A DNA stretch of 10,757 nt from a virus. Its lineage: Duplodnaviria; Heunggongvirae; Uroviricota; Caudoviricetes. Position 1 is the stretch's first letter, and each line of letters begins with the position of its first letter. The notes below the pieces were generated by a model. That model was not told where the DNA came from, did no database searches, and saw nothing but the letters and a program-made list of their open reading frames with translations. Made by a program: the position numbers and the translations under genes. Below are positions 1-10,757 of this stretch, one piece after another. The stretch is from positions 1 through 10,757 of IMG/VR virus record IMGVR_UViG_2693429677_000014. One strand, written 5' to 3'.

Positions 1-682
1 ATACAGAATAATCATCAAAATCAAGTGGGCTATCAGCACCCGGCGTCAGGCTTGCAATATATCCTCTTCCCATAACTTCTGATGCTGGTATTTCTTTTGT
101 ACGATAATCACTAACTCTGAAGAGCTGCCCTTGGTGGGTGTGTAATTCCACTCCTCCATTCTGAAGACTTAGCAAGGCACGTACAGCATCAATACCACGC
201 CCGTCATCCCAGCCACGAATAAACTCACCACGTAAATCAGGCAATTTATTTGTCGGATAAGCCTTTGCCAGTTCCGGGTATTCTTCAGCAGAAAAAGCGG
301 CACCGTTGCATTTCAGCCAGCCTGTTGGCGGAGTGGCTGAAGGCCACGGAACAGGCACCCCAACCGGTAATGCAGAGCCTTCTCCCAAACCAAGGTTTTC
401 GAGAGCCGTTTTCACCGTGCCATCCGATTTGATATCACCAAACGGATTCTTGCGGCTTAACAGCAGAGCACGAAGCGCGGTAAGCAACTGGTCGTGCCGC
501 GCCTTCTCCAGACTGGCACCGGATGCCTCAACAACGCTACAAAGTTCTTCCTGCAACATGTCAAAGTAGTCATCATCCAGATCGGTGGCAGGCGTGCCAG
601 TCTGGGGGTTACCACGGGTAAAACCGTTCTTACCCGCGCCGAACTTATCCTTCTGCGCGGTTTTCGTGTCTATACGATGCAT
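1..682 (-). CDS. stfP: Side tail fibre protein, N-terminal part (e14/Mu S-type, with phage tail-collar domain); CDS is open at the window start
   Basis: Absent from the ORF track because it runs off the window edge. Own minus-strand translation from ATG at 682-680: [47 protein letters not shown]...[72 protein letters not shown]..., no stop down to position 1. Start lies 4 nt after the ymfQ stop. The PWPS...GWLKCNG...YP motif is the tail-collar domain seen in Stf proteins. Confidence 0.75.
230..393. repeat. 164-bp perfect direct repeat, copy 1 (tail-collar coding segment inside stfP)
   Basis: Base-by-base comparison: 230-393 is identical to 1369-1532 in the same orientation; mismatches immediately outside both ends. 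Confidence 0.9.
380..405. promoter_or_regulatory. Hin/Gin/Cin/Pin-type DNA-invertase crossover site (pix-like), inside stfP
   Basis: TTCTCCCAAACC-AA-GGTTTTCGAGAG: two near-palindromic 12-bp half-sites around an AA core, close to remembered hixL (TTCTTGAAAACCAAGGTTTTTGATAA). The repeat boundary falls exactly after the AA core. Confidence 0.6.
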
Positions 683-685
683 GGA

Positions 686-1270
686 TTACTCCGGATATTT
701 AAAAATTACGTAGGTATGCGACGGGCAGAGTTTGTTAAGCACACACTCGACAACGGTGTCGCCCCAGATACGCAGTGCGGAATCACAGGGATCGCCACAT
801 GTCATCCAGGTGGTGTTGGTGGCGGCTGGCATGTTGACCTGCCAGTAATACCGCCATTCCGGCGCATTCACCGCGTCAGTACAGGCCGATGAGCAGGTGA
901 AAGTGCTTTTGTCGTATCGCGTGATGGTGGCATCTGGTCTGCCCAGGGCAGCAAGCTGTGCAAGATAAAAATCCTCGTTGATGCCGCCCGCCAGGTTAAC
1001 CTTCGCATCCAGCCGTTGCTGACGCTGGCGAAGGGTCTGTGTCCCTGCGGGAATACATTCATCCGGCAGACCGCACAGACGCTCCCAGCGGTTTATCAGT
1101 TCATTGGTGGTGCGCGGATCCAGCTCCCGCATAAGGGCATCCGCACGCTGATGAACGCGGGTTAATGACGGTGCCGCACCGGCAATCGCCGGATCGCTGG
1201 CTGACCACGCCGGACCGGGGGGCAACAGTGCCGACAACAGACGGATGTAATCATCGTTTGTCACGTCCAT
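686..1270 (-). CDS. ymfQ: Phage tail protein, DUF2313 / Mu gp48-like (e14 YmfQ-like)
   Basis: ORF track 686..1270, 194 aa, [34 protein letters not shown]...; matches remembered e14 YmfQ in length and sequence; sits immediately upstream of the tail fibre gene as in Mu-like tail modules. Confidence 0.8.
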
Positions 1271-1368
1271 GAAATCGTCCCCAGTACCGCCAGTTCATTT
1301 TTTGCAATGGAGATATTGTCTGCCGGTGCAAGCAACTGATGGCTGTATTCCCCGTTCGCACCGGAAAT

Positions 1369-1532
1369 ACGTAAATCAGGCAATTTATTTGTCGGATAAG
1401 CCTTTGCCAGTTCCGGGTATTCTTCAGCAGAAAAAGCGGCACCGTTGCATTTCAGCCAGCCTGTTGGCGGAGTGGCTGAAGGCCACGGAACAGGCACCCC
1501 AACCGGTAATGCAGAGCCTTCTCCCAAACCAA
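1369..1532. repeat. 164-bp perfect direct repeat, copy 2
   Basis: Identical to 230-393 (checked in 10-nt blocks). Confidence 0.9.
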
Positions 1533-1544
1533 CATTTATGAAAA
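1519..1544. promoter_or_regulatory. Second invertase crossover-type site (pin-proximal), same orientation as the site at 380-405
   Basis: TTCTCCCAAACC-AA-CATTTATGAAAA: left half and core identical to site 1; right half retains the TTT..TGA.AA pattern of hix/gix right halves; lies about 55 bp upstream of the divergent pin start. Confidence 0.45.
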
Positions 1545-1598
1545 TGCAGAAATAACGAGCAAATGGCATCATTCCTGCTTTTGTCAGGGGGCGCTACC

Positions 1599-1727
1599 AT
1601 GCTTATTGGCTATGTACGCGTATCAACAAATGACCAGAACACCGATCTACAACGTAATGCGTTGAGCTGTGCAGGATGCGAGCTGATTTTTGAAGACAAG
1701 ATAAGCGGTACAAAGTCCGAAACCTAG
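1599..1727 (+). pseudogene. pin: Serine DNA invertase (Pin/Hin/Gin family), 5' fragment only; truncated after about 40 codons
   Basis: Own translation: MLIGYVRVSTNDQNTDLQRNALSCAGCELIFEDKISGTKSET*, matching the conserved invertase N-terminus (catalytic Ser in YVRVSTNDQ); homology ends around codon 38-40, then TAG at 1725-1727. Confidence 0.75.
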
Positions 1728-1774
1728 GGCTGACACTGCTGTTCTTATTGCAAATTAAAGGATTTAATAGTGAG

Positions 1775-1802
1775 TAGCGGCCTTACTAATGTAAGGCCGC
1801 TA
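1775..1802. terminator. Hairpin between the convergent pin remnant and the GmrSD gene; possible bidirectional terminator
   Basis: Perfect 11-12 bp stem AGCGGCCTTAC / GTAAGGCCGCT with TAAT loop, 21 nt after the GmrSD stop; T-rich run (CATTTTATT) follows on the plus strand, no clear U-tract on the minus strand. Confidence 0.4.
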
Positions 1803-1822
1803 TAATCATTTTATTAATTGCA

Positions 1823-3712
1823 TTAATCGTGTTTTGGCCATACTTTCAATGCAATTTCCCCCAACTTTTTACCCCGCTCCAGGATTTCATCCTCATCCCA
1901 TTTATCCTTAACTATAAGTGGAATGTTCAGTCGTAGATTGGTGTGGACGATGAGAGCATCACGTTTTTTCAGAAATACAGCATTCTGAACAGAACGGTTT
2001 ACGCTAAGGTTAAGCAAAGTTAGATTTCCCAACGTAGTTATCGCTTGTTGCCGTTTCCTTACCAGTAGCTGTTCTGGGGTAAGATCGGTTCCAGACAGAA
2101 CAATTTGGTTCAATACCGTAGCATCTGAATTTGTCACCATATGACCATTTTCGAGAGGCCAACAGGAATACCAACTTTGAGGCATAAGATGATCGATATC
2201 GAGGTTAGAAAGATTTGGAACATCAGGCTTCTCTGTCTTCACTTGGCGACAAAGTTCTCTTTCAAGTTCCGTTAACATTGAGCGCATTTTCGGTGCGTCG
2301 AGCCTGCCAGGATAAAGTGGAGCATTGATGCAAGCGTTGAGAAATTCTGAGTCCCCAGGCCAACGTGAGGCTTCGCCATTTAAGCTATTGAGGATATTAC
2401 GTAACTCAACACTGGAAATTTCTGTTTTAGACAAGTGCCGCAATACATTCATAAATACATTGTTGTAATTCTTTGGCGTCAGGCCACATACGGCTCTTCG
2501 TACTACGTAGGAGACAAGATCATTATACATGGCTGCTTTCTCATCATCGGCGATGTTAGCTATCGAAATGAACAAAGCAAGCGGATAAAGTGTCGTCACA
2601 TCATAGGCTGCGATGCGATGTCCAAAGTGTGAGATGGGGGTTGTGCCAAAACCACCAACCAATTCTTTATATTGTGATGCATATTGTTTGAGGCGCTTTA
2701 CTTGCAGATCTGCTCGTTGTGAAGGCAAGTCCTTACTTACATAATCACGATACTCATTGTAAAGACGAGACAGATCGATTTCACGTTGCCTTTCTGATTG
2801 CAATGTTGCATGCACTAGCCACTCCATGCGTGGTTTATTAATACGACCACGACGTTGTCTTTCTGACCAGTACGTATCTTCAAAGATCTTCCACTCATTC
2901 TCATATAATTCAACAGCATTAATATTTTCATGTTCAGCGCACATAAAAATATAATTGCGAATAAGATCTGTGGCATGAAGTTCCGCACCTCTGCCATTTA
3001 ATGTTTCAAAAATTATTTGAGCGTCATCTTCAGCCTCGAGAAATATGCTTACTAGTTTCAGATCCGTCAAGACAGCCTCAATTAATGCTACAGCATTTTC
3101 TCGTGGTGAGTGATTTTCTATTTTAATCCACTTTATAAAGGCTTCAGTAAAAAAACATAATGCTTCTAGTGATGGCGGGTGATTAAAATGCTTACGCAAC
3201 GTACCATGCTGCGTGAAACTATCAGAGAATACATTCCGGATATCGTCAATATTTTCAACATTAAAACTTTGAATAAAATGAGTTTGATCCCGAAAAGTTG
3301 GCCACAGTTTGAAGCGCTCTACTTCTTTATTTCGCATTGTGTCTTCGTTTGAGTTTTTCAGGCAAGACGAAATGAGAGGCTCTAAGTTGGAAAGATCTGT
3401 TGCACGTAATGCTAATCGGATGGATGCCAGAACATATTGAAGAGTGGTCAATCGTTGCTGACCATCAATAATATGTATGGAATCTACACCGAATAATCCT
3501 TTTTTTGGTTGAGGTTCCAGTACAACTGCACCAAGGAAATGGGGAGTTGGTTTTGTACCCGAGAGCCGGGATTGTGCTTTCTCTAGGATATCCTCCAGTA
3601 GAGCTGACCATTGGTTTCGCTGAGTCCATACATAGGCACGTTGATAGAATGGAACACAGTATTGTCGGCGGTCTTGAAAAAGTTGTTGGACAGTTAGCGT
3701 CTCGGATTTCAT
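1823..3712 (-). CDS. GmrSD-family putative type IV (modification-dependent) restriction endonuclease: N-terminal DUF262 (ParB-like, DGQQR motif) + C-terminal DUF1524 (HNH/His-Me finger)
   Basis: ORF track 1823..3772 (649 aa). Motifs YCVPFYQRAYVW and IIDGQQRLTTL (DUF262); C-terminal DIDHLMPQSW ... LGNLTLLNLSVNRS (DUF1524). Start chosen at ATG 3712 (MKSETLTV..., AGG 7 nt upstream); the upstream ATG at 3772 has no Shine-Dalgarno and overlaps a TAAAAT -10-like hexamer. Confidence 0.8.
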   Translation of the reverse strand: MKSETLTVQQLFQDRRQYCVPFYQRAYVWTQRNQWSALLEDILEKAQSRLSGTKPTPHFLGAVVLEPQPKKGLFGVDSIHIIDGQQRLTTLQYVLASIRLALRATDLSNLEPLISSCLKNSNEDTMRNKEVERFKLWPTFRDQTHFIQSFNVENIDDIRNVFSDSFTQHGTLRKHFNHPPSLEALCFFTEAFIKWIKIENHSPRENAVALIEAVLTDLKLVSIFLEAEDDAQIIFETLNGRGAELHATDLIRNYIFMCAEHENINAVELYENEWKIFEDTYWSERQRRGRINKPRMEWLVHATLQSERQREIDLSRLYNEYRDYVSKDLPSQRADLQVKRLKQYASQYKELVGGFGTTPISHFGHRIAAYDVTTLYPLALFISIANIADDEKAAMYNDLVSYVVRRAVCGLTPKNYNNVFMNVLRHLSKTEISSVELRNILNSLNGEASRWPGDSEFLNACINAPLYPGRLDAPKMRSMLTELERELCRQVKTEKPDVPNLSNLDIDHLMPQSWYSCWPLENGHMVTNSDATVLNQIVLSGTDLTPEQLLVRKRQQAITTLGNLTLLNLSVNRSVQNAVFLKKRDALIVHTNLRLNIPLIVKDKWDEDEILERGKKLGEIALKVWPKHD

Positions 3713-4169
3713 GGTATACCTGTAAGCGACATTGTACAAAAGTGAGGAGTTAATCTGATTTAGAACAATCATTTTATGTTGCTATGATACAACGTATTTG
3801 TTACCGGTTAAGTAAAAAACGCGTCTGAACGCTGACGTTTTAGGGCTTTACTAGTTATTCTTTCTTATCTCTTCATCATCCCATCGGCATCCTGTCGAGG
3901 TTGTTGACTTGTTGTTATTTATTTTGTTTAGGCGCTGTTTAATTATTATTGATGGGACTGGTGGTGAGAGGTGATTGAAACCGCAGACAGGTCGTATGCA
4001 AGACGTGCTGCGGTTGGCTGATGCACTTTTGATAGTGCAAGTATTGAATGATTGCCAGTCACAGCGGATTGTACTTAGGTAATATGACGGTTCAAGGCGT
4101 TTAAACTGAAACCATCCACATATCAGTCTCTTCAAACATTTCCTAAATCGTTCGGCTTATCTGTTCTTT

Positions 4170-4605
4170 CTCACGTTTGCTGACGTCAGTGCTGATTGCC
4201 GGCAGTGTCATCATCGGTTTTACACGATACCCTTTGCGTTGAACGAGTCGTACTACTGTAACAACGCGTCGGTGAAGCTCCTCATCCCGACACAGGACAG
4301 TCGGGATATCATTGCAGTAGCAACGGGGAGTCTGGATGCAATATGGAAAGACGGACACCGATATCAGAAAGCCGGGGTAATGCTGGGGGACTTCTTCAGT
4401 CAGAGCATGCCCTAACCTATTCGACGATAACGCGCTGGGTCCTGGGAGCGAAAAGTTAATGAGCGTGCTGGAGCACCTCAACGCAAAAGACGGGAAGGAA
4501 ACACTCTGTTTCGCTGGGCAGGGCATTCAGCAGCAGTGGCAGATGAAACGCGAGATATTTTCGCACCGGTATACAACTAGATTTTCTGGCATTTTAGGTG
4601 GTTAG
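4170..4605 (+). pseudogene. umuC: umuC-like (Y-family translesion polymerase Pol V catalytic subunit) 3' remnant; frameshifted, 5' two-thirds missing
   Basis: Own translation: ...PFALNESYYCNNASVKLLIPTQDSRDIIAVATGSLDAIWKDGHRYQKAGVMLGDFFSQ then frame change, then FDDNALGPGSEKLMSVLEHLNAKDGKETLCFAGQGIQQQWQMKREIFSHRYTTR..., which parallels the remembered UmuC C-terminus (ASVKLLTPTQDSRDII ... FAGQGIQQQWQMKRAMLSPRYTTR). 17 nt where about 21 are expected between FFSQ and FDDNA. Confidence 0.65.
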
Positions 4606-4642
4606 ATAGATATTTATGCTCTACGCAATGAATATGAGAGAA

Positions 4643-5308
4643 TTAATTGTCTAAGCTGGTATAATATGAATAAAGGCTTTTTCCCATTATTTTCTCTAAA
4701 TCCTTTTTGTTTCTAAAGAAAATGTTTGAGATATGCTGATGATAATACTTTATAATGATTCTCATCAGCGCCGATACTACCTCATGAAGTTTTTTCACCA
4801 TTTTATGCTGTGTTGAATTACAATCTCCCTCCATAAGTGATATAAATGTTGATGTAACATTTAGGTTCGCTTGGGGGGAGGAGTGAACATAATAACAGGC
4901 GTTGATATAGACATTATGTAAATAAGACCAGCCTTCATCGACTTGTTGGGCTTTTAAGAAGTCAAAGTCTCTACGACGTACAGTTTGGTCAAAATCCCCA
5001 CCATTGTAGTTCTTATTGAGGCTTATTCTGGCCACATGCTCCACCATTGAGCGGAAGTTCAGTTGGAGATACCGTTCTCTTTTTTTTATAATGGCAATTA
5101 AGGAGTTTAAGGTATCATATATAAAACCTTTTATATAAGAAGAGTGATTTAGATTAGGATTGTGACTTAAAATTGTATTACAAAGACTTATTTGCCTAAA
5201 TATTGATACTGATTTGTTTATTTCATCAGTGGTTCTGAGGTGCTTTTGCACCTCCGCTCTAAAATAATTTACATCTCTTCCAATGTTGAAGGGATCCTGC
5301 GTGAGCAT
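4643..5308 (-). CDS. Hypothetical protein (221 aa), third gene of the AT-rich operon; no recognisable domain
   Basis: ORF track 4643..5308; start ATG overlaps the upstream stop as TAATG (translational coupling); AT-rich codon usage consistent with its neighbours. Confidence 0.6.
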   Translation of the reverse strand: MLTQDPFNIGRDVNYFRAEVQKHLRTTDEINKSVSIFRQISLCNTILSHNPNLNHSSYIKGFIYDTLNSLIAIIKKRERYLQLNFRSMVEHVARISLNKNYNGGDFDQTVRRRDFDFLKAQQVDEGWSYLHNVYINACYYVHSSPQANLNVTSTFISLMEGDCNSTQHKMVKKLHEVVSALMRIIIKYYHQHISNIFFRNKKDLEKIMGKSLYSYYTSLDN

Positions 5309-5706
5309 TATTCTTCTTCCTTTTTATTTGCATTAATCCAAATATTTAAATTCCTTATAGCATGCTTGCTTTTAGATGTGGATTTTTGGCTTGTTTTATT
5401 TGCATCATTAAAAATAATGTCTAATGTGTTAATGTTGTTTAAGAAATGCGTATAAGCCATCTTTATGTCATTCTCACTTAATTCATTAATATGTTTGCAA
5501 ATTTTAGCGCACATCAAAGTTCTTGACCGTACAGCATAATTCAAAAAAGATATTTTGAAGGTTTTGTTAATAAATTTACTAACATCAAAATTTGATCTAA
5601 AAACCTCTTTTGAAAGAATCAACATAATTACCAAGCCTAAGAAGTTTTCTTTGGTCATGGGCATATTGTTAGCTTTATTGAGCGCTTTAATTAATTGTTT
5701 ATTCAT
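5308..5706 (-). CDS. Hypothetical protein (132 aa), Lys/Asn-rich; second gene of the AT-rich operon
   Basis: ORF track 5308..5706; overlaps the ParA-like stop by 8 nt and the downstream start by 1 nt; no motif recognised. Confidence 0.55.
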   Translation of the reverse strand: MNKQLIKALNKANNMPMTKENFLGLVIMLILSKEVFRSNFDVSKFINKTFKISFLNYAVRSRTLMCAKICKHINELSENDIKMAYTHFLNNINTLDIIFNDANKTSQKSTSKSKHAIRNLNIWINANKKEEE

Positions 5707-6544
5707 TTGTGTTACCTTCCAAGTGAGCCACTCTGTTAATAAATTCGTTACAGATCTTTTCTATATCTTGGCGTGACTTTGAATAACAAGAAGGAATATT
5801 TCCTTGATAACCTACCATTAAATCACGCACGTAGGTTAATTGATTTTCAAAGAAATAAAAATTTGTAAATTGAGTATGGTTTTCGAATTGTTCTTTAATT
5901 TCCCTTGTTTTATTGGTCATTTCAGCATCAGTGTTTGTATAAATGTAACCGACTTGCTTGATTTCTTTCTCATGATGTGTGCGCATATTTCTTATAACGC
6001 TATTTAAACTGCTTGCTCCAAGCACCGAGTAGTGATCAATTTTAACCGGAGTAAGATAATAATCAGAAGCAAGGAGTGCGGTATCTGTAAATAATGAGAT
6101 TGTTGGGGGGCTATCGATAAAGATATAGTCGTAACTTTCTTTTAAGTCATTTTCGGTGATGAATTTACGCAACATTTTTATTCTAATACCCTCTTGGTTA
6201 GTATCAAAGATAATGTTTATATCACCTAAGATAATATCAAGATTGTCTGAAACTTTAGTAATGACCTGTTCTGGTGTCACTTTCTTTTCATCTTCCATTA
6301 ATGAATTTGGAAGCTCAAAAATCTTTCGAATGGTTTGATTATTAGGGCGAAGGGCAGTCATATATTCTTCTACTCGATCATAATGCCCCATTAAGGACTG
6401 AGTGGCATTAAATTGAGGATCAATATCGATAACTAGAACCTTGCGCCCCATATGGTTGGCTAAAAACTCAGCAATCCCAACGCATAAAGTTGTTTTACCA
6501 ACCCCACCTTTCATATTGATAAAACTAATTACTGGTGCAGTCAT
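5699..6544 (-). CDS. ParA/MinD/Soj-family P-loop ATPase (deviant Walker A)
   Basis: ORF track 5699..6544 (281 aa): MTAPVISFINMKGGVGKTTLCVGIAEFLANHMGRKVLVIDIDPQFNATQSL (KGGVGKTT deviant Walker A, DxDPQ) and YDYIFIDSPP (Walker B); AAGGA Shine-Dalgarno about 10 nt upstream of the ATG. Confidence 0.85.
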   Translation of the reverse strand: MTAPVISFINMKGGVGKTTLCVGIAEFLANHMGRKVLVIDIDPQFNATQSLMGHYDRVEEYMTALRPNNQTIRKIFELPNSLMEDEKKVTPEQVITKVSDNLDIILGDINIIFDTNQEGIRIKMLRKFITENDLKESYDYIFIDSPPTISLFTDTALLASDYYLTPVKIDHYSVLGASSLNSVIRNMRTHHEKEIKQVGYIYTNTDAEMTNKTREIKEQFENHTQFTNFYFFENQLTYVRDLMVGYQGNIPSCYSKSRQDIEKICNEFINRVAHLEGNTNE

Positions 6545-7291
6545 TTTTTCATCCTTAATTATGTAGTGTGAAATAGATTCACTATGCTGAAAGCATTTTT
6601 TAGCTTGATTTTTATACTGCGCGTTGACTTATCACCCTATCATATATGATTTTTAGGTGTTGCATAGACTGGTTTTATATCAGGGGCTTAGGTTGTATGT
6701 GGCGTCACAGAATCACTAATCATTGAACTTTGTACATGTAACGGTCCTGTTAAATAATATATAATGGGTTGTTAAGTTGGCTCTCTGATTCCTGATGCCC
6801 CAAGGACGCGCGTCATTGCGTGCCAGATTAACTTTTCGGCGGGCACAGTGCTATCGGCAATTATTTCCTCAGCCTCTTTCCCGCATAGGTCTTGGCGCAT
6901 CCATTTTCTTGCTATGAAATCTCCAGCCGGTCAGACTGAAAGTATAGAAGAGAATATGCGAATCGCTGTTCCGGTGTTTCTGGGAGAGCTTATGTCGGAG
7001 TAATTCCCCGGTAATTGAATCTCTTTTGCTCGCTCATAACAGACATTCACTACAGTTATGGTAGAAAGTATGTATGCTGATTGGGGAAAGTGTGAAAGAA
7101 AAGAAGACTGCTGCGCTGTTTGTCGTCACGTTTATCTTCATTGGCTATGCAAGTCATAATACAAGGTGGGACAAAACTGAGACACATAAGGCCTCACAAT
7201 GGCTTGCAAGGCTTTACATGTTTTGATGTGGTGGGACGTGTGAGCACAGTGTTGATGGGGTAATACTTTGAATTAGAAGCGGATTCTTATA

Positions 7292-7337
7292 ATTCGTAAT
7301 GCGAAGGTCGTAGGTTCGACTCCTATTATCGGCACCA
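7292..7337 (+). pseudogene. tRNA-Thr(CGU) 3' fragment (anticodon loop to CCA), thrW-like; integrase attachment-site duplicate, not a complete tRNA
   Basis: ATTCGTAATGCGAAGGTCGTAGGTTCGACTCCTATTATCGGCACCA: CGT anticodon, T-arm GTAGG-TTCGACT-CCTAT, acceptor 3' strand plus discriminator A plus CCA; no D-arm or 5' acceptor strand upstream. Ends 14 nt from the integrase stop. Confidence 0.7.
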
Positions 7338-7351
7338 TTTAAATCAATAAA

Positions 7352-8512
7352 TTACCTCACATTTAAGTAAACCACGTTCACCTCTTGTGCCGTATTTGTG
7401 CCATTGCGACTTATAATCGCATCGATTTTGCTCGCGTGCTCGGTGAGATGCCCGGCTGAAAGGTGGGCGTATCTTTGAACCATTTCGAGAGTTTCCCATC
7501 CTCCCATCTCTTTAAGTGCAAGAAGAGAGACACCGGACTGAACCAGCCAGCTTGCCCAGGTATGCCTCAGGTCATGGAAGCGGAAGTTGCTAATGCCCGC
7601 CCGCTTTAACGCTCCCTTCCATGCCTTGTTGCTGTCGGTTCTCATCTTCCTTACCGCTGCTGTTTTTGTTCCGTCGCTTCGGTAGGCAGGTCTGGTGTGG
7701 ACAAATACCCATCTCTTATGGAGCCCCTGCTGTTTTCTTAATATCTGGCATGCGGTTTCGTTAAGAGGAACTCCGATCGCATTGCCAGCTTTTGTTTCAT
7801 CAGGGTGCATCCATGCCATTTTCTTATCCAGATCGACCTGTGACCACTCAAGGTCTGTAACGTTGGAACGGCGAAGGCCTGTCGTGATTGCAAACATGAC
7901 CACAGGGAAGAAATGAGGAGCAATTTCTGCAAACAGGTGCTTCGATTCCTCCTCTGTAAGCCATCTGATTCGTCCATTCTTAACGCGTGGTGTTGATATT
8001 TTGGGCGCCCTGTCAAGCCATCCCCATTCAACAGCTATATTGAGAATAGCGCGAAGTATTGCCAGATGCCGCGTCTTCGTTCCTTTGCTTGCCAGCTTTG
8101 GTTTATACTCCGGCACTGGCTTGCCAAGCCGCAAACACCTGTCCCGGCTCATCTCCCAGTTCAGGCGATGGCGGCGGTTTTCCATCCCGTCTACCGCCTC
8201 CATTATTTTTTCTGTTGTTATGTTAGAGAGAATGGTTTCTCTGAAGTGCAACATCCAGAACGATATAATGCTCTTGTCATCATCAATGGACTTCTTATCC
8301 GATTTCTCACGCAGCCACCGTATGCAGGCTTCCTTGAATAGCTTTTTCGGTGATTCCCCGAGATTTTTTACTCTCCACGCTTCTGCTTTCAGACGATCGT
8401 GAAATTCTTGCGCTTGCCTTTTGTCCGATATTTTAAGTGAGCGTCTAACTCTTGATCCATCTGGCGCGACGAAATCGCAGTGCCACGTGCCACCGCGTAG
8501 TTTGATTGACAT
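7352..8512 (-). CDS. int: Tyrosine site-specific integrase, lambdoid IntF/IntD (HK620/Sf6/SfV) family
   Basis: ORF track 7352..8512 (386 aa); AGGAGG 8 nt upstream of the ATG; catalytic boxes RFHDLRHTWASW and VQRYAHL; overall resemblance to remembered IntD/IntF-type integrases; 3' end abuts the tRNA-Thr fragment. Confidence 0.9.
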   Translation of the reverse strand: MSIKLRGGTWHCDFVAPDGSRVRRSLKISDKRQAQEFHDRLKAEAWRVKNLGESPKKLFKEACIRWLREKSDKKSIDDDKSIISFWMLHFRETILSNITTEKIMEAVDGMENRRHRLNWEMSRDRCLRLGKPVPEYKPKLASKGTKTRHLAILRAILNIAVEWGWLDRAPKISTPRVKNGRIRWLTEEESKHLFAEIAPHFFPVVMFAITTGLRRSNVTDLEWSQVDLDKKMAWMHPDETKAGNAIGVPLNETACQILRKQQGLHKRWVFVHTRPAYRSDGTKTAAVRKMRTDSNKAWKGALKRAGISNFRFHDLRHTWASWLVQSGVSLLALKEMGGWETLEMVQRYAHLSAGHLTEHASKIDAIISRNGTNTAQEVNVVYLNVR

Positions 8513-8687
8513 GCTTTAACCTCCTGCACATCAACCGCATTCACCGCGCTATTGTGTCTTACAGACTTAAGCGCCGCAATGCAGTCTGACTTGCAAATGC
8601 GATATGGGCTTTTAGGTTTATCTGGATTTATCTTTGCGGCCTGAAGTCGTCCACTTCGTATCCACTGCGTGATAGTGTCTTTGTCTA
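8389..8687 (-). pseudogene. Excisionase-family (AlpA/Xis-like) HTH DNA-binding protein, 5' end cut by IS911; reading frame overlaps the integrase start
   Basis: Minus-strand translation from the IS911 boundary: ...IDKDTITQWIRSGRLQAAKINPDKPKSPYRICKSDCIAALKS..., fitting the excisionase-family winged-helix pattern; no start codon in the flank, first helix missing; frame runs through the integrase RBS and ATG to a stop at 8389. Confidence 0.5.
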
Positions 8688-8759
8688 TGTAGTGGCACAC
8701 TGAATTTGGCCACCTGAACAGAGGTGATATGCTCACCTCAGAACAACACAGGTGCTCCA

Positions 8760-9930
<1,171 letters not shown>

Positions 9931-9968
9931 CCACTACAAATTGGCGACGTTAGCGTTACAGATATTAA

Positions 9969-10757
<789 letters not shown>

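Follow-up and report, generated by a model that had tools for sequence, protein, structure and literature searches.

The window, by which we mean the whole 10,757-bp stretch of DNA analyzed here, is the entire contig CYBT01000044.1 (reversed) of the draft assembly GCA_001277775.1. Its left end carries a phage fibre gene with one intact baseplate gene and the end of another, followed by a truncated invertase gene and a restriction gene; all genes of this region apart from the truncated invertase gene, pin', lie on the minus strand, and ARAGORN found no tRNA in the window. The features with which we are concerned are the following:

1 to 682, minus strand: stfP-like fibre gene, recognized by its translation, with its start codon at 682-680 and a Collar domain (Pfam, E = 7.7e-16)
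1 to 393, minus strand: variable Collar-type cassette within the stfP-like fibre gene
406 to 682, minus strand: constant fibre part, the 5' part of the stfP-like gene
230 to 393, minus strand: first copy of the repeat (block R), fused to the constant fibre part
380 to 405, plus strand: pix site of the fibre gene (pixL type), TTCTCCCAAACC-AA-GGTTTTCGAGAG, with the AA core at 392-393
686 to 1270, minus strand: ymfQ, intact, 194 aa, encoding a Mu Gp48-like baseplate protein (Pfam Phage_Mu_Gp48, E = 4e-26)
1261 to 1368, minus strand: 3' end of jayE (baseplate J), the last 35 codons and the stop (108 nt), collinear with the jayE CDS of FDAARGOS_1284 (locus L001)
1368 to 1369, no strand: joint between the jayE 3' end and block R, GGAAAT/ACGTAAAT
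1369 to 1532, minus strand: second copy of the repeat (block R), parked beside pin' and 100% identical to the first copy and to L001
1261 to 1569, minus strand: chimeric open reading frame CTU37236.1, 102 aa (103 codons to 1572), consisting of an orphan start in the pix-pin spacer, 55 codons of R and 35 codons of JayE
1519 to 1544, plus strand: pin-proximal pix site (pixR type), TTCTCCCAAACC-AA-CATTTATGAAAA, with the AA core at 1531-1532
1599 to 1727, plus strand: pin', which retains 41 codons from the start of a Pin-family serine invertase gene, closed by one foreign codon and a stop (Pfam Resolvase, E = 4e-9)
1823 to 3772, minus strand: GmrSD (DUF262/DUF1524) type IV restriction gene (Pfam GmrSD_N and GmrSD_C; PADLOC mREase_IV, 1437 bits)

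The fibre gene runs past the left end of the contig, with about 110 nt missing, and the exact YmfQ protein is found on 306 contigs. The remainder of jayE is absent from the window; what is left is the authentic C-terminus of JayE, read in the frame of jayE, the native overlap of 10 nt between jayE and ymfQ is kept, and the corresponding CDS of FDAARGOS_1284 ends at position 10261 of that locus. A preliminary description of this DNA, made from the letters alone, had counted this tail behind the pin-side repeat copy as 37 codons, which is corrected here to the 35 codons and stop of JayE. It had also placed ymfQ and the constant fibre part between the two crossover sites, which is right as far as it goes: the interval holds the constant part (406-682), ymfQ (686-1270), the jayE end (1261-1368) and, in addition, the second copy of the repeat.

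Block R corresponds to the first 55 codons of the Collar-type variable fibre cassette. The perfect direct repeat reported in the preliminary description, in which the 164 bp at 230-393 recur at 1369-1532, is confirmed, and with two mismatches it extends to 169 bp; the copies diverge directly 3' of the AA core (at 393/394 and 1532/1533). A 164-bp repeat cannot have arisen by chance in 10.7 kb, and since canonical relatives, in which the inverted repeat measures about 20 bp, hold block R in a single copy, it must be truly duplicated in the window.

When the window was searched for the half-site TTCTCCCAAACCAA with up to two substitutions allowed, there were two matches only, both on the plus strand; the two sites do therefore read the same way, as had been claimed, whereas every canonical locus examined has one site on the plus and one on the minus strand. 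Each is 26 bp long, with a 2-bp core between 12-bp half-sites that are imperfectly symmetric. The site at 380-405, which encodes LENLGLGE in frame, is identical at 26/26 positions to the K-12 e14 stfP site and equally to the sites of the compared loci L001-L003, L006 and L007, and the site at 1519-1544 agrees with the pinE-proximal site of K-12 at 25/26 positions, the one difference being the A at 1534. We rejected the idea that this G>A is a unique, possibly inactivating change, the exact allele being present in 50 complete genomes (exact 42-mer 1519-1560), where either cassette type adjoins it. Both window sites contain the published e14 inverted repeat CCTTCTCCCAAACCAA, which flanks the 1,797-bp e14 P segment (PMC12529663), and the window sites match K-12 e14 and six other loci. 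In the alignment with e14 that had been proposed as a check, the earlier statement that both copies of the repeat stop at the AA core of an invertase site of 26 bp stands, with sites identical or allelic to those of K-12 e14, and both are genuine e14-type pix sites of the Pin/Din family.

The invertase gene beside the second site is dead, as had been described. Its similarity to K-12 pinE stops at 1722 in the alignment, the GmrSD gene stands where the rest of pin was, and this truncation joint (pin'-GmrSD) is common to 289 complete genomes. The window therefore has no functional invertase in cis, pin being cut after codon 41, and it is possible that one is supplied to this locus in trans: PinE, PinQ and PinR all invert the e14 P segment, with PinQ and PinR acting in trans (PMC12529663). 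The Fis-binding recombinational enhancer of such systems lies about 100 bp from one site, inside the 5' coding region of the invertase (PMC3798978). Beyond the pin-proximal core 190 bp are kept, with one strict match to the Fis consensus at 1669 (from an unspecific scan of pin'), and the flipping of other pin' loci, set out below, suggests that the cis elements survive in loci of this kind.

The locus is a member of the serine-invertase fibre-switch class formed by e14 P, Mu G and P1 C. The nearest of these, the e14 P segment of K-12 (stfP-tfaP / tfaE-stfE, with pinE), reportedly described by Plasterk and van de Putte in 1985, shares with the window the gene set of jayE, ymfQ and a fibre gene with a constant 5' part, a Collar-type cassette that is 96% identical over window positions 188-398, and the first 41 Pin codons, which are the same as in pin'. 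The two differ in that the e14 sites are inverted and 1,797 bp apart, whereas the visible sites of the window are direct and 1,139 bp apart; in that the e14 sites flank two cassettes and two tfa genes, but those of the window the constant part, ymfQ and the jayE stub; and in that pinE is intact and followed by mcrA, whereas in the window pin breaks off at codon 41, with GmrSD behind it. The tail module at 379-1368 is 96.8-96.9% identical to that of SfV-like temperate myophages (SfV, SfI, SfII and SfIV), the records of which match the jayE end, ymfQ and the constant part, homology stopping at 379, the pix site; the cassette and pin' module of the window are of e14 type. The likeness to the Mu G, P1 C and p15B Min segments, with their Fis/enhancer-dependent invertases Gin, Cin and Min, is one of organization: they too have a 26-bp site with its 2-bp core at the boundary between the constant and the variable fibre parts, and an invertase that adjoins one site.

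On the right-hand side, positions 1369-4053 are 96-99% collinear with the pin'-GmrSD module of the 289 complete E. coli genomes, for instance IHE3034, GPEC1189 and PK8276, which have the same truncation point. In 67 of the 289 the parked cassette is also the same, block R adjoining pin', but in all of these genomes, unlike the window, the cassette is continued by its own 3' part and tfaE, and beyond it, on the far side, comes the fibre operon, oppositely oriented. Inverted sites flanking 3' cassettes and tfa genes, by which an invertible fibre segment is recognized, are not seen within the window, and neither are the Rci tyrosine recombinase and the 19-bp sfx repeats in pilV by which an R64-type shufflon is recognized. 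Given the serine Resolvase-family N-terminus, the pix sites and the phage fibre target, the locus is not a shufflon, the term chosen in the preliminary description, which belongs to the Rci/sfx family, but a serine-invertase segment of the Din/Pin type. It is no new kind of system, but an unverified, strain-specific variant of the long-known e14 P/Pin/pix biology.

The same cassette is found in both Pin contexts in other genomes. Positions 1-1368 of the window are collinear at 99.85% with FDAARGOS_1284, in which cassette and constant fibre part are fused; the cassette of PK8276, which matches positions 1-393 with 99.75% identity, adjoins pin'-DUF262 instead, just as the cassette is parked at pin' in GPEC1189 and IHE3034. 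Annotated K-12 derivatives likewise have either cassette type adjoining pinE. A direct comparison is afforded by IHE3034 and strain 10035004-3, which carry the same prophage with the same pin'-DUF262 joint: the flanks are 99.96-100% identical and in the same orientation, whereas the 1.9-kb segment that the sites enclose is inverted at 99.9% identity, with 20-bp overlaps at both sites. The segment is thus seen in both orientations with its breakpoints at the core, and Pin inversion alternately fuses the cassette to the constant 5' part of the fibre gene or parks it beside pin. The identity of the two repeat copies ends at the AA core because block R is present in the window in both of these contexts at once. 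The earlier interpretation of the ends of identity as an invertase footprint accordingly holds at the core; it fails at the other end, 1368/1369, which has no pix features.

Because the pin' loci of IHE3034 and 10035004-3 differ in orientation, local loss of pin does not stop inversion, and the most economical reading of the two sequences would be that this inversion came after the truncation of pin, by way of an invertase acting in trans. The statement that the locus can no longer invert is plausible for the visible direct pair, but less secure for the locus as a whole, the pin-truncated relatives of which still flip. What sets the window apart is that positions 394-1368 are inverted relative to pin' in comparison with all relatives.

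The departure from the canonical layout comes down to one joint. To its left jayE is collinear with L001, L002 and L003 exactly up to 1368. The window reads ...CACCGGAAAT/ACGTAAATCAGG... across the joint, where the parental jayE has ...GGAAAT/CGCCTCAC... and the parental cassette ...CTCACC/ACGTAAAT...; in this comparison there is no microhomology at 1368/1369, the parents share no dinucleotide there, and no pix-like half-site is present at 229/230 or 1368/1369, where by eye at most 4/12 positions agree with TTCTCCCAAACC. Since the parents share no dinucleotide, and since the products of an exchange between two pix sites invariably pair a cassette-side half with one from outside, the joint was not made by Pin; an origin at a Pin quasi-site was considered and rejected for want of half-site similarity and of a shared core dinucleotide. 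The direct arrangement, which the preliminary description had attributed to the invertase, is for the same reasons not its product: a joint with neither pix sequence, core dinucleotide nor microhomology calls for at least one illegitimate event or for an assembly chimera.

The joint has been found on this contig alone. None of 5,426 complete E. coli genomes spans 1368/1369 (megablast with 68 nt and with 701 nt), the 24-mer across it is absent in exact searches of the GTDB representative genomes, IMG/VR and the JGI metagenomes, and the phage collection contains no record that spans it. For each of the remaining joints of the contig there is a complete genome that spans it, and tiles from such genomes cover 1700-7406, 7025-8687, 7292-9938 and 8685-10667, so that 1368/1369 is the sole exception. 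The joint fuses codon 55 of the cassette in frame to the jayE tail, for which the probability by chance is one in three; the resulting chimeric reading frame cuts the Collar domain four residues short of its end, forms a singleton 90% cluster on one contig among some 15 billion proteins, and is unlikely to give a functional product.

We consider it fairly probable (about 0.6) that the window preserves a real, strain-specific secondary rearrangement of an e14/SfV-type Pin fibre-tip locus that was not made by Pin, for which two routes fit about equally well. The first would require one prophage, with the starting arrangement

jayE> ymfQ> constant part> pix [R> X> tfa> <tfa <other cassette] pix pin'>

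in which a tandem duplication of a 1,139-bp unit, comprising the 108 nt of the jayE 3' end, ymfQ, the constant part, pix and R, would create exactly one new joint, that between the jayE 3' end and R. An ordinary inversion by trans-acting Pin, with the outer fibre site and the pin-proximal one as its crossover points, would then give

<X <R pix <constant part <ymfQ <jayE' / <R pix pin'>

which would be the window base for base, and would predict that a third site, in inverted orientation, lies some 1.7 kb beyond the left end of the contig. A recent duplication fits the 0/164 mismatches between the two copies of R as against 6/164 between the second copy and GPEC1189 (which has 3 more in the next 228 nt), and the weak point of this route is the two-copy inverted repeat of 975 bp, through which short reads would have had to be assembled. 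Min is a multi-site system, which the three sites of this route would recall; known multi-site systems, however, multiply variable cassettes, whereas here the constant part and a baseplate gene would be multiplied. That the strain has such a three-site Pin system, with a second ymfQ, constant fibre 5' part and pix inside the invertible segment, we regard as doubtful.

In the second route there would have been two prophages, one of them with a truncated pin, and an illegitimate deletion or inversion would have brought the parked cassette of the latter up to the jayE 3' end of the other. This would be in keeping with the continuity of the contig, and its weak point is the need for two prophages carrying an identical cassette, which is made plausible by FDAARGOS_1284 and PK8276, as these share both the cassette and the tfa proteins. 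A simple inversion within a single prophage was also considered and rejected, the inverted repeat of the relatives being about 20 bp, not 164 bp, and R being single-copy in them.

Against a real rearrangement, whichever its route, count the singleton status of the joint in every collection searched and the source of the sequence, a 10.7-kb contig of a draft assembly, and these same two facts, with the chimeric reading frame a singleton as well, favor an assembly chimera. In that case the prophage would be canonical, with its segment in both orientations in the culture, and chimeric reads or a join made by the pipeline would have produced the fusion of jayE and R. Joints with zero microhomology are uncommon in illegitimate recombination in vivo in E. 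coli and typical of ligation chimeras, so that the joint fits an origin in vitro. A culture of mixed orientation, moreover, gives two 100% identical copies of R with no duplication, and the orientations of the e14 segment are mixed in clonal cultures (PMC4272514). The preliminary description had taken a canonical inverted arrangement in reads or related genomes as a sign of misassembly, and the part of this that concerns genomes is borne out, all complete relatives being canonical and inverted and none like the window.

Several features nevertheless speak for a real joint. Contigs would end at a known repeat or homology boundary, and there is none at either breakpoint; the mosaics of the cassette have their breaks at 157, 188 or 195 and not at 230, and breakpoints that lie off the usual homology boundaries count in favor of the joint. 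In the graph of a mixed-orientation culture the breaks would be expected to coincide with the pix sites, from which the actual ones are 164 bp and 975 bp distant, and complete genomes tile the rest of the contig. A de Bruijn assembler would be expected to write a joint with no shared k-mer only if the reads contain it, and k-mers of low-coverage chimeras would normally have been removed from a graph that needs supporting k-mers at the joint. On this evidence we hold an assembly chimera to be a credible but unlikely explanation. That the direct layout was made by the invertase throughout, through exchange in a multi-site module or through its collapse, Pin having crossed over at either end of the repeat, is very improbable: one end of each copy does stop exactly at the AA core, and Pin-family invertases can use secondary sites (the quasi-sites of Cin), but the other end is without likeness to a pix half-site and without the common dinucleotide that serine-recombinase exchange requires, and an exchange between pix sites can never join jayE to the interior of a cassette.

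Turning to the present state of the locus on the reading that we prefer, a real secondary rearrangement, wild-type Fis/enhancer-dependent invertases carry out inversion only, between sites on the same molecule, and deletion between direct sites at a comparable rate is confined to hyperactive mutants (PMC3798978, PMC4817059). Since the visible sites are direct, this pair should be inert, and the fibre gene would be fixed in its R-X form unless a third site exists; because the contig stops 393 bp into the cassette, there is room for a third, inverted site at the leftward position given above. If the duplication route is the true one, Pin could flip either the whole region or a sub-segment in the manner of a nested multi-site switch, and the contig would show one isomer out of several that interconvert. 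Were the DNA between the two visible sites deleted, which would be a rare event, ymfQ and the constant part would be lost and the canonical parked end regained.

The locus is also a cautionary case, in that invertible segments in draft assemblies yield contigs which resemble 'fossil' arrangements, the tell-tale boundary here being the repeat end that lies away from the crossover site. If the joint is real, it means that a small, ordinary duplication or deletion, and not the invertase, can lock or re-wire an invertase switch, and it adds to the evidence for pin-less segments that are driven in trans.

In the window, the gene for the Pin-family serine invertase is reduced to a remnant, pin', which is broken after codon 41, with a GmrSD type IV restriction gene abutting it, and the two are followed by a small island of three genes:

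1599-3772: pin' (1599-1727, + strand) and the GmrSD (DUF262/DUF1524) type IV restriction gene (1823-3772, - strand)
4643-6544: three-gene island, a ParA-like ATPase and then two ORFs
5699-6544: ParA-like ATPase
5308-5706 and 4643-5308: the two ORFs after the ATPase, co-oriented and overlapping

GmrSD occupies the position at which, in the e14 element of K-12, McrA, also a type IV enzyme, lies downstream of pinE. Among the 5,426 complete E. coli genomes compared, 289 carry the pin'-GmrSD joint of the window; the tail modules joined to it vary (SfV-like, lambda-like side fibre, or DUF2612 baseplate), as do its chromosomal locations (ssrA, icd, and pao), and the pin'-GmrSD unit looks like a mobile end piece that carries defence cargo. 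The ATPase and two-ORF island is kept at 99.5% beside GmrSD in many genomes, and Pfam and PADLOC searches with the two ORFs gave no match.

The other end of the window is built of integrase and insertion-sequence material:

7292-10757: stretch with two integrases (one partial) and an IS3-family remnant
7352-8512: tyrosine integrase
about 8760-9930: IS3-family remnant
contig end: second integrase, partial

In relatives, a tRNA-Thr is annotated next to the counterpart of the tyrosine integrase; ARAGORN found no tRNA in the window. Within the IS3-family remnant, positions 9294-9341 hold a 20-nt perfect palindrome with a spacer of 8 nt.

Two bases past the core of the pin-proximal crossover site, position 1534 is A where the usual base is G; since this allele is matched exactly in 50 complete genomes, with either type of cassette (the exchanged 3' fibre part) adjoining, it is probably compatible with inversion. 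A 1.9-kb fibre segment lies in opposite orientations, at 99.9% identity, in the loci of strains IHE3034 (L003, 8231-10169) and 10035004-3 (L006, 2565-4503), and because these strains have both the prophage and the truncated pin in common, the comparison of their sequences implies that the segment would have been inverted in trans, after the local invertase was lost.
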